A DNA stretch of 26,422 nucleotides, from the IMG/VR virus record IMGVR_UViG_2541047936_000001. The stretch is one strand, 5' to 3'. This DNA comes from a virus (lineage: Duplodnaviria > Heunggongvirae > Uroviricota > Caudoviricetes). The translations under genes were made by a program, and so were the position numbers. Below the pieces are notes generated by a model. The model ran no database searches. It was not told the DNA's origin and was given only the letters and a program-made list of their open reading frames with translations. Of this stretch, positions 20,533 to 20,830 are shown piece after piece (within the stretch, counting starts at the first letter, position 1; each line of letters opens with the position of its first letter).

Positions 20533-20830
20533 AAAAAAAGAGCCAGCGACTGACCTGAAAGAAGACGCTGGCTAAAAGGCCTTATATGTTTGTAGAGACT
20601 TATTTTTCACAGACAGCAATGATGCCTGTCAATATATTATCAATATGCGGATTGTTTCAGTTACAGATGCCTTATTAAGGAAAAAAACAGCCAGCACTGA
20701 CTTTCGGTGGAGAGGTGCTGGCTCAAAAGGATAGATGTACTTCACATGTTGCTTCTATATGGCAGTACATTTTCTGACAGACAGTGACGGATGTTGTCAA
20801 GATATTGTGTCATTTATAACCTGAATCAGG
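20533..20830. repeat. Two imperfect tandem repeats (~148-bp period), each starting with A7 plus an 8-9-bp-stem hairpin (20541-20573; 20689-20723)
   Basis: AAAAAAAGAGCCAGCG...CGCTGGCT and AAAAAAACAGCCAGCAC...GTGCTGGCT; shared GACAGACAG...GTCAA(T/G)ATATT. Confidence 0.5.

Follow-up and report, generated by a model that had tools for sequence, protein, structure and literature searches.

The prophage pasA locus as a probable tandem pair of diverged sRNA genes for PasA and the EcOnc51/EcOnc52 RNA

Introduction

PasA, an sRNA of prophage PP2 in EPEC E2348/69, is the described RNA that most closely matches the locus analyzed here. Its major form of 85 nt maps to the minus strand of NC_011601.1 (743499 to 743415), and a minor form of 236 nt has its 3' end at 743264 (Table S6 of Pearl Mizrahi et al. 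2021, PMC8550237). In EPEC, PasA gives a northern band of the expected size, has 41 RIL-seq partners, which include LEE and bfp genes, and is lower in an hfq deletion strain, with a log2 fold change of -2.8 (PMC8550237). The seed proposed in the same study, GCCAGCACCU, is the 5' arm of PasA's own terminator stem. According to a preprint on the Pas sRNAs (Zhu, Shabalina & Storz 2026), PasA and PasC come from a common ancestor, pasA copies are never <22 kb apart, and the mature PasA 5' end is possibly made by cleavage of a longer transcript.

A second body of data concerns EHEC Sakai, in which EcOnc51 (prophage Sp12, 2237479 to 2237555, plus strand) and EcOnc52 (Sp4, 1181998 to 1182075, minus strand) were listed as orphan Hfq-CRAC peaks (Table S2, PMC4104026). 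Both were flagged as having a predicted Rho-independent terminator, and neither was given a northern blot, a name, or a characterization (Tree et al. 2014, PMC4104026). In the EPEC study, EcOnc51/52 were cited as homologues of a RIL-seq entry, "pasA.E2348C_0688.IGR," which was merged into PasA as a minor isoform (PMC8550237).

Here, we analyze a stretch of 26,422 nt from a Caudoviricetes virus (IMG/VR record IMGVR_UViG_2541047936_000001), referred to as the window, in which an earlier note, made from the sequence alone, had pointed to two repeat units with terminator-like hairpins as candidate paired small RNAs. We find that the feature is real, functional, and already known; what our analysis adds is the paralogy and tandem layout of the two units, a likely origin of PasC, and a coordinate trap in the Sakai data.

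Results

Layout of the esterase-holin spacer

The units occupy a spacer of 447 nt between plus-strand open reading frames of 616 aa (18681 to 20531) and 68 aa (20979 to 21185). The features that frame and define them are as follows.

18681 to 20531, plus strand: gene for a SASA-family sialate O-acetyl esterase (nanS-p type), from the RefSeq annotation under near-identical matches
20533 to 20539 (A7), with arms at 20541 to 20548 and 20566 to 20573, plus strand: unit 1 hairpin, arms AGCCAGCG and CGCTGGCT, from an inverted-repeat search
20681 to 20687 (A7), with arms at 20689 to 20697 and 20715 to 20723, plus strand: unit 2 hairpin, arms AGCCAGCAC and GTGCTGGCT, a perfect 9 bp
20897 to 20933, plus strand: intrinsic terminator between pasA and the holin gene, convergent with the sRNA genes (terminator scan; phage 434 annotation)
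20979 to 21185, plus strand: class II holin (pinholin) gene, downstream

Read on the minus strand, each unit consists of a TTGACA block, a short body, a GC-rich hairpin of 8 to 9 bp, and U7. The earlier note had taken the A7 and stem of each unit for a minus-strand terminator and had remarked on a conserved TTGACA upstream; both observations were borne out, with the hairpins at 20541 to 20573 and 20689 to 20723 and the hexamers at 20627 to 20632 (unit 1) and 20795 to 20800 (unit 2). From TTGACA to the last U, unit 1 measures 99 nt and unit 2 measures 119 nt. The same note had described tandem repeats of ~148 bp. The similarity is real, and the terminators do lie 148 nt apart; the promoter blocks, however, are spaced by 168 nt, since one RNA body is longer than the other (85 versus about 66 to 70 nt), and the Tandem Repeats Finder program did not report a unit 1/unit 2 repeat. 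The two units share 87 identical alignment columns over 148/150 nt, as in an old, diverged repeat, and their local alignment score of 35 compares with 16.0 ± 2.4 for shuffled sequences (maximum, 30; n = 2000).

What the units have in common are promoter-like and terminator elements, namely, TTGACA, CTGTCTGT-(C)AGAAAAT, CCTTTT-AGCCAGC, GCTGGCT, and the U-run, while the spacer and the RNA body have drifted. The block ACAGACAGN4GN5TGTCAA occurs exactly twice in the window, where 0 occurrences are expected. In folding, the unit 1 RNA was better than 200/200 shuffles (z = -3.4), and PasA had a z of -1.3. Of the unit 1 hairpin, a simple terminator scan picked up just the inner stem; the unit 2 hairpin, with its 17-nt loop, escaped it. 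In 671 complete Escherichia coli genomes with near-identical DNA, nothing is annotated between the esterase and the holin.

The window is collinear with PP2 of E2348/69 across the whole spacer. Homology to this prophage (95% over 2.9 kb, 18233 to 21184) ends with the holin gene, and window position 21184/21185 is a mosaic boundary. In PP2, a lysozyme gene directly adjoins the holin gene, an arrangement that the window lacks; the next long plus-strand open reading frame lies at 21873 to 22406. Two terminator-like hairpins on the plus strand, at 20835 to 20852 and 20897 to 20933, lie between pasA and the holin gene and face the sRNA genes.

Several further elements were noted elsewhere in the window. 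An Rfam STnc100 match (18371 to 18543, plus strand; 100.8 bits) lies just upstream of the esterase gene, in the PR'-proximal sRNA slot that is taken by PasD2 in EPEC and by StxS in Stx phages; thus, the window carries the PasD/STnc100-esterase-PasA arrangement of Zhu et al. Three clustered tRNA genes (17351 to 17597, plus strand) precede this region, and another tRNA gene (892 to 978, plus strand) lies near the left end. Other Rfam matches are DicF (6749 to 6800, minus strand; 76.7 bits), the sok antitoxin RNA (13880 to 14054, plus strand; 114 bits), and the ALIL pseudoknot of an IS3-family frameshift site (2213 to 2329, plus strand; 121.5 bits). There are also a 45-bp tandem repeat at 25783 to 25873 (2 copies, 84% matches, GGN-CCN-rich), possibly collagen-like Gly-X-Y in a tail fibre gene, and a T-rich imperfect repeat of 21 to 25 bp at 23544 to 23620.

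Unit 2 is pasA

20681 to 20765, minus strand: pasA, the 85-nt unit 2 transcript, 5' end at 20765 and 3' end in the U7 at 20681 to 20687
20689 to 20723, minus strand: PasA terminator hairpin, 9-bp stem and 17-nt loop (inverted repeat, folding, RNAalifold)
20713 to 20722, minus strand: PasA seed GCCAGCACCU, i.e., the terminator 5' arm and adjoining loop (Fig. S5 of PMC8550237)
20533 to 20765, minus strand: PasA read-through isoform, through unit 1 to its terminator; 233 nt here and 236 nt in EPEC

By sequence, unit 2 is PasA, an RNA that is already known: the flanking genes, orientation, terminator, and seed are the same. The minus-strand RNA from 20765 to 20681 is identical to PasA of EPEC E2348/69 at 85/85 positions, and the published northern probe GCCAGCACTGACTTTCGGTGGAGAG (PMC8550237) has an exact match at 20690 to 20714. 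The gene has the antisense esterase-holin slot in a lambdoid prophage, and its product has the 3' stem-loop with poly-U and the seed. Expression and stabilization by Hfq are known for the identical EPEC sequence and are predicted for the strain that carries the window.

Two observations concern the immediate neighborhood. A listed PasA target site, CUGGUGCUGGA (MEME site table, PMC8550237), occurs as CTGGTGCTGGA in the last codons of the esterase gene (20499 to 20509). Separately, EPEC RIL-seq recorded a plus-strand fragment at the PasA 5' boundary (E2348/69 743494 to 743512) in chimeras with PasB. This fragment corresponds to positions 20760 to 20778 of the window and hints at a convergent plus-strand RNA.

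Unit 1 encodes the RNA under EcOnc51 and EcOnc52

20533 to 20602, minus strand: unit 1 sRNA of about 66 to 70 nt, 5' end approximate (20598 to 20602), U7 at 20533 to 20539
20541 to 20573, minus strand: unit 1 terminator hairpin, 8-bp outer stem plus inner pairs (inverted repeat, scan, folding)
Body segment of the unit 1 RNA: UCUCUACAAACAUAUAAGGCC

Sequence identity likewise places unit 1 as the RNA under the EHEC Sakai Hfq-CRAC peaks EcOnc51 and EcOnc52, which has been catalogued and is unnamed. At the EcOnc52 coordinates, NC_002695.2 reads TCTCTACAAACATATAAGGCC...GCTGGCTCTTTTTTT, identical at 66/66 positions to the window from 20598 to 20533 on the minus strand. EcOnc51 is unit 1 too (66/66) once a coordinate offset of +136 is applied. 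The coordinates of Tree 2014 and Waters 2017 refer to NC_002695.1; relative to NC_002695.2, the shift is +136/137 nt at Sp12 and 0 at Sp4, an offset that we worked out from RNase E-CLASH read sequences (Waters et al., PMC5286369). Taken uncorrected on NC_002695.2, the coordinates would make EcOnc51 the 3' half of the upstream unit, an assignment ruled out by the CLASH reads and the Sp12 offset. Unit 1 thus shares its sequence with the Sp4 and Sp12 peaks as well as the predicted Rho-independent terminator, and in the phage 434 record (OL657226.1), both hairpins are labeled as terminators on the minus strand. HnrS (EcOnc10-12, a 66-nt RNA) was also considered as an identity for the units and was rejected, since it belongs to a part of Sakai Sp12 that has no match in the window. 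After coordinate correction, HnrS (EcOnc10) reads ...AATCTTCTACCCAATCAGTACATTACTGCTGTGACTCCAACACGGCAGTTTTTTT.

The earlier note had proposed two paralogous antisense RNAs of ~80 to 100 nt as candidates for Hfq-dependent regulators. Paralogy and the size of unit 2, exactly 85 nt, agree with that proposal, whereas unit 1 is shorter, at about 66 to 70 nt; the Hfq dependence is upheld by the identical sequences, PasA and EcOnc51/52, that are Hfq bound in EPEC/EHEC. More specifically, the unit 1 RNA is bound by Hfq in EHEC and enters Hfq-dependent chimeras in EPEC.

The EPEC RIL-seq entry "pasA.E2348C_0688.IGR" is unit 1. It is always the second RNA in its chimeras, has a U-tract of 7, and has 5 partners, a set unlike that of PasA. 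Its top partner is a fragment spanning the rpoS start codon (3102402 to 3102485; 92 chimeras; P = 2.8e-90), and others include escD and the pfkA 5'UTR. Under activating versus nonactivating conditions, unit 1 gave 119 versus 54 chimeras and PasA gave 4983 versus 116. Unit 1 is also present in RNase E-CLASH hybrids of Sakai, one of which holds RNA from the unit 1 "promoter" region.

We compared predicted pairings with the partner fragments. The unit 1 loop UUCAGGUCAG forms 10 perfect bp with the pfkA 5'UTR site CUGACCUGAA, and 0/60 shuffles were as good; this fragment was the only one to be significant, and it was so in the 16-nt sliding-window version. For the rpoS and escD fragments, predicted duplexes with unit 1 did not outdo those of shuffles (RNAduplex; 16-nt sliding windows). 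When RNAduplex was run unconstrained on RIL-seq partner fragments with unit 1 or PasA, the duplexes were long, loop-ridden, and no better than those of shuffles.

Promoter blocks and the independence of unit 1

20769 to 20800, minus strand: pasA promoter-like block, TTGACA (20795 to 20800), N15, TGT, CAGAAA; the mapped 5' end lies 6 nt on
20602 to 20632, minus strand: unit 1 promoter-like block, TTGACA (20627 to 20632), N15, TGT, GAAAAA, with the architecture of the pasA block

Both units appear to be transcribed from a promoter with the pattern TTGACA-N15-TGT-(G/C)A(A/G)AAA. The pasA block is nearly invariant across PasA, PasA-2, and PasC variants. Counted from the first T of TTGACA, the PasA 5' end as published and the beginnings of the CRAC peaks lie 32 to 36 nt downstream, with both peaks at 32 to 35 nt; these equivalent distances fit the reading of TTGACA as a -35 element, as the earlier note had it. 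For unit 1, the 5' end was placed from CRAC peak edges, which are not transcription start sites. The -10 elements are weak. A consensus promoter scan called neither TTGACA-block promoter; it called an overlapping CTGAAA-18-TATATT on the minus strand from 20660 to 20631.

A rather doubtful, although not negligible, alternative is that unit 1 is a fail-safe second terminator of pasA, so that the Hfq-bound RNA is the 3' end or a fragment of the 236-nt read-through transcript and the TTGACA is a relic of an ancient duplication. The minor PasA isoform of 236 nt does end exactly at the unit 1 terminator, and one CLASH hybrid carries the unit 1 "promoter" sequence as RNA. Together, these data indicate that read-through RNA exists, and it could be the sole source of unit 1 3' ends. 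The weak -10 element of unit 1, not called by the scan, and the decision of the EPEC authors to put both entries under PasA point the same way. Other data are harder to reconcile with a fail-safe terminator: the condition dependence of chimeras differs about 20-fold between unit 1 and PasA, the partners of unit 1 are not those of PasA, and the CRAC peaks begin just past the predicted -10 element without spanning the spacer. In addition, unit 1 with an intact promoter block occurs without pasA in Sakai Sp4, in 6/91 IMG/VR loci, and in about 100 plasmid copies. Loci with unit 1 alone that keep the promoter block include Sakai Sp4, behind IS629, and plasmid pO145-13514. Because the unit 1 copies of Sakai Sp4 and Sp12 are identical, reads cannot be assigned to the copy without an upstream pasA. 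Chimera counts, partners, and survival without pasA suggest that unit 1 does not depend entirely on pasA.

Family, stem covariation, and distribution

Judged by its sequence relationships, unit 1 is a paralogue of PasA, and the locus is a tandem pair: the units have in common the promoter block, a terminator stem with compensatory changes, and the genomic slot. The earlier note had suggested looking for such changes in the stem. Across 16 distinct variants of the family, RNAalifold recovered the 9-bp terminator stem with compensatory changes at 3 pairs (C-G to U-A and G-C to A-U); stem cells were paired in 97.9% of cases, versus 19 to 49% when the partner columns were slid.

A scan of IMG/VR with the promoter block retrieved 120 loci, and 91 of these are members of the family. 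In the commonest arrangement (49/91), the order is unit 2, unit 1, esterase stop. In 27/91, one gene of the unit 2 type abuts the esterase; unit 1 stands alone in 6/91, and the remaining 9/91 are cut by a contig end or rearranged. In these loci, the unit 1 body is invariant. The bodies of unit 2 form discrete alleles, among them PasA, PasC, and a type from Sakai Sp12 that matches PasA-2 as described.

Among 5426 complete E. coli genomes, 677 (about 12%) carry unit 1, at 2307 places, of which about 100 are on plasmids; a carrying genome often has at least 3 copies. Unit 2 is found in 692 complete E. coli genomes at 2859 places, 8 of them on plasmids. RefSeq annotates the units in none of the carrying complete E. 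coli genomes. Among 185,579 species representatives, the pair was found only in Escherichia albertii.

On EHEC virulence plasmids, orphan unit 1 copies (about 93% identical) lie beside an esterase 3' remnant and IS600, without unit 2. In pO145-13514 (NZ_CP006028.1; L132 2501 to 2646), the 31-nt promoter block is unchanged, and the body and stem carry substitutions.

PasC of EPEC prophage PP5 resembles unit 2 in its promoter block and 5' body and unit 1 in its terminator stem type (G-C at the covarying pair), which abuts the esterase stop; unlike the pair in the window, it is a single unit. In locus L089, a true unit 1 body likewise carries a terminator loop of the PasC type. These features suggest that PasC arose from a unit 2/unit 1 pair by recombinational collapse or deletion; the alternative is the reverse order, in which a single unit was later duplicated.

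Discussion

We propose, at a probability of roughly 80%, that the locus consists of two diverged, tandem sRNA genes of the same orientation, antisense to the phage late operon: pasA and a gene for the EcOnc51/EcOnc52 RNA, the latter RNA being made both from its own promoter and by read-through and base-pairing separately. Both genes occupy the intergenic "moron" slot of a lambdoid prophage, with the esterase on one side and the lysis cassette on the other. In a lysogen, the late operon is terminated upstream, and both genes should therefore be expressible without convergent traffic. Unit 2 would give the 85-nt PasA, which would end at its intrinsic terminator, be bound and stabilized by Hfq, and pair with mRNAs via GCCAGCACCU, as seen in EPEC. 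Unit 1 would give an RNA of about 66 to 70 nt that stops at a terminator of its own, 2 nt past the stop codon of the esterase gene. This RNA may have two sources, transcription from the TTGACA-N15-TGT-GAAAAA promoter and PasA read-through, whose 3' part it forms. It would base-pair with targets in its own right, and its specificity would come from the terminator loop and stem, where it is unlike PasA.

A more far-reaching version of this proposal, to which we give even odds, holds that unit 1 is an independently transcribed, Hfq-dependent paralogue of PasA and PasC with a regulon of its own (rpoS start, pfkA 5'UTR, and escD) set by the terminator loop and that the pasA locus is a two-gene array whose recombination made PasC and the single-unit variants. 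If true, the array was missed by the 2026 survey of Pas sRNAs, which explicitly excluded tandem duplication. As that survey found pasA copies never closer than 22 kb, unit 1 was not detected as a paralogue.

Three other readings fare worse than the fail-safe terminator. That the units belong to the AgvB/AsxR family of "anti-sRNAs," which sponge core sRNAs such as GcvB, is very unlikely. AgvB and AsxR (RF02702 and RF02703) do share with PasA and unit 1 the prophage slot (downstream of PR', antisense, and before the lysis genes), and they too are short, Hfq-binding RNAs that end in an intrinsic terminator; the ACAAACA of the unit 1 body, read from sequence, resembles the GcvB R1 target motif. 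Yet the terminator differs, as does the 3' domain, of which roughly 42 nt are conserved in AgvB/AsxR, and there was no match to RF02702 or RF02703 even at E = 10 and no BLAST similarity to AgvB, AsxR, or EcOnc03. PasA and unit 1 have CDS, 5'UTR, 3'UTR, and IGR RNAs as RIL-seq partners and no sRNA; the known partners are mRNAs and not core sRNAs. A search of 20400 to 21050 against Rfam, at the gathering threshold and at E ≤ 10, returned only noise (snoRNAs, ncr982) and no Pas, AgvB, or AsxR, and no Rfam family covers the unit 1 or unit 2 RNA; BLAST searches of the window with AgvB, AsxR, EcOnc03, and the HnrS region of Sakai gave nothing relevant.

Harder still to sustain is the idea that the hairpins are mere minus-strand terminators that shield the esterase and late genes from antisense transcription out of the lysis region, with no regulatory RNA involved. 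The curated phage 434 record labels them simply as terminators; identical sequences, however, yield abundant RNAs that bind and depend on Hfq and have defined partners, and PasA gives a northern band. Least credible is a type I toxin-antitoxin-like arrangement in which the RNAs are antisense to plus-strand small proteins (30 aa, 20586 to 20678; 29 aa, from about 20736), since, although both units have an ATG a few bases past AAGG 3' of the plus-strand hairpin, neither frame nor length is conserved: the two open reading frames read the shared ACAGACAG block in different frames, and those of unit 2 variants have 29, 13, or 4 codons, with no hydrophobic toxin-like conservation.

Returning to the tandem sRNA gene pair, OmrA/OmrB and PrrF1/PrrF2 are tandem paralogous sRNA genes that are adjacent, on the same strand, and diverged. 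As in units 1 and 2, a variable body lies between a conserved promoter and terminator, and a read-through isoform spans both genes (compare PrrH). Their sequences are unrelated to those of units 1 and 2, which form a phage-borne array and have the seed in the conserved 3' region. With PasA of PP2 there is no difference from unit 2, and it is in the treatment of unit 1, as a "minor" 3' extension in published accounts, that our description departs.

Through prophage sRNAs, core regulation and virulence in EHEC and EPEC are connected to the accessory genome. That the pasA locus would give two paralogous RNAs is a modest refinement of known biology and no discovery, and it bears chiefly on annotation and on how experiments are designed: unit 1 may or may not be removed along with pasA by a given deletion or probe, and the 236-nt isoform carries two seeds.
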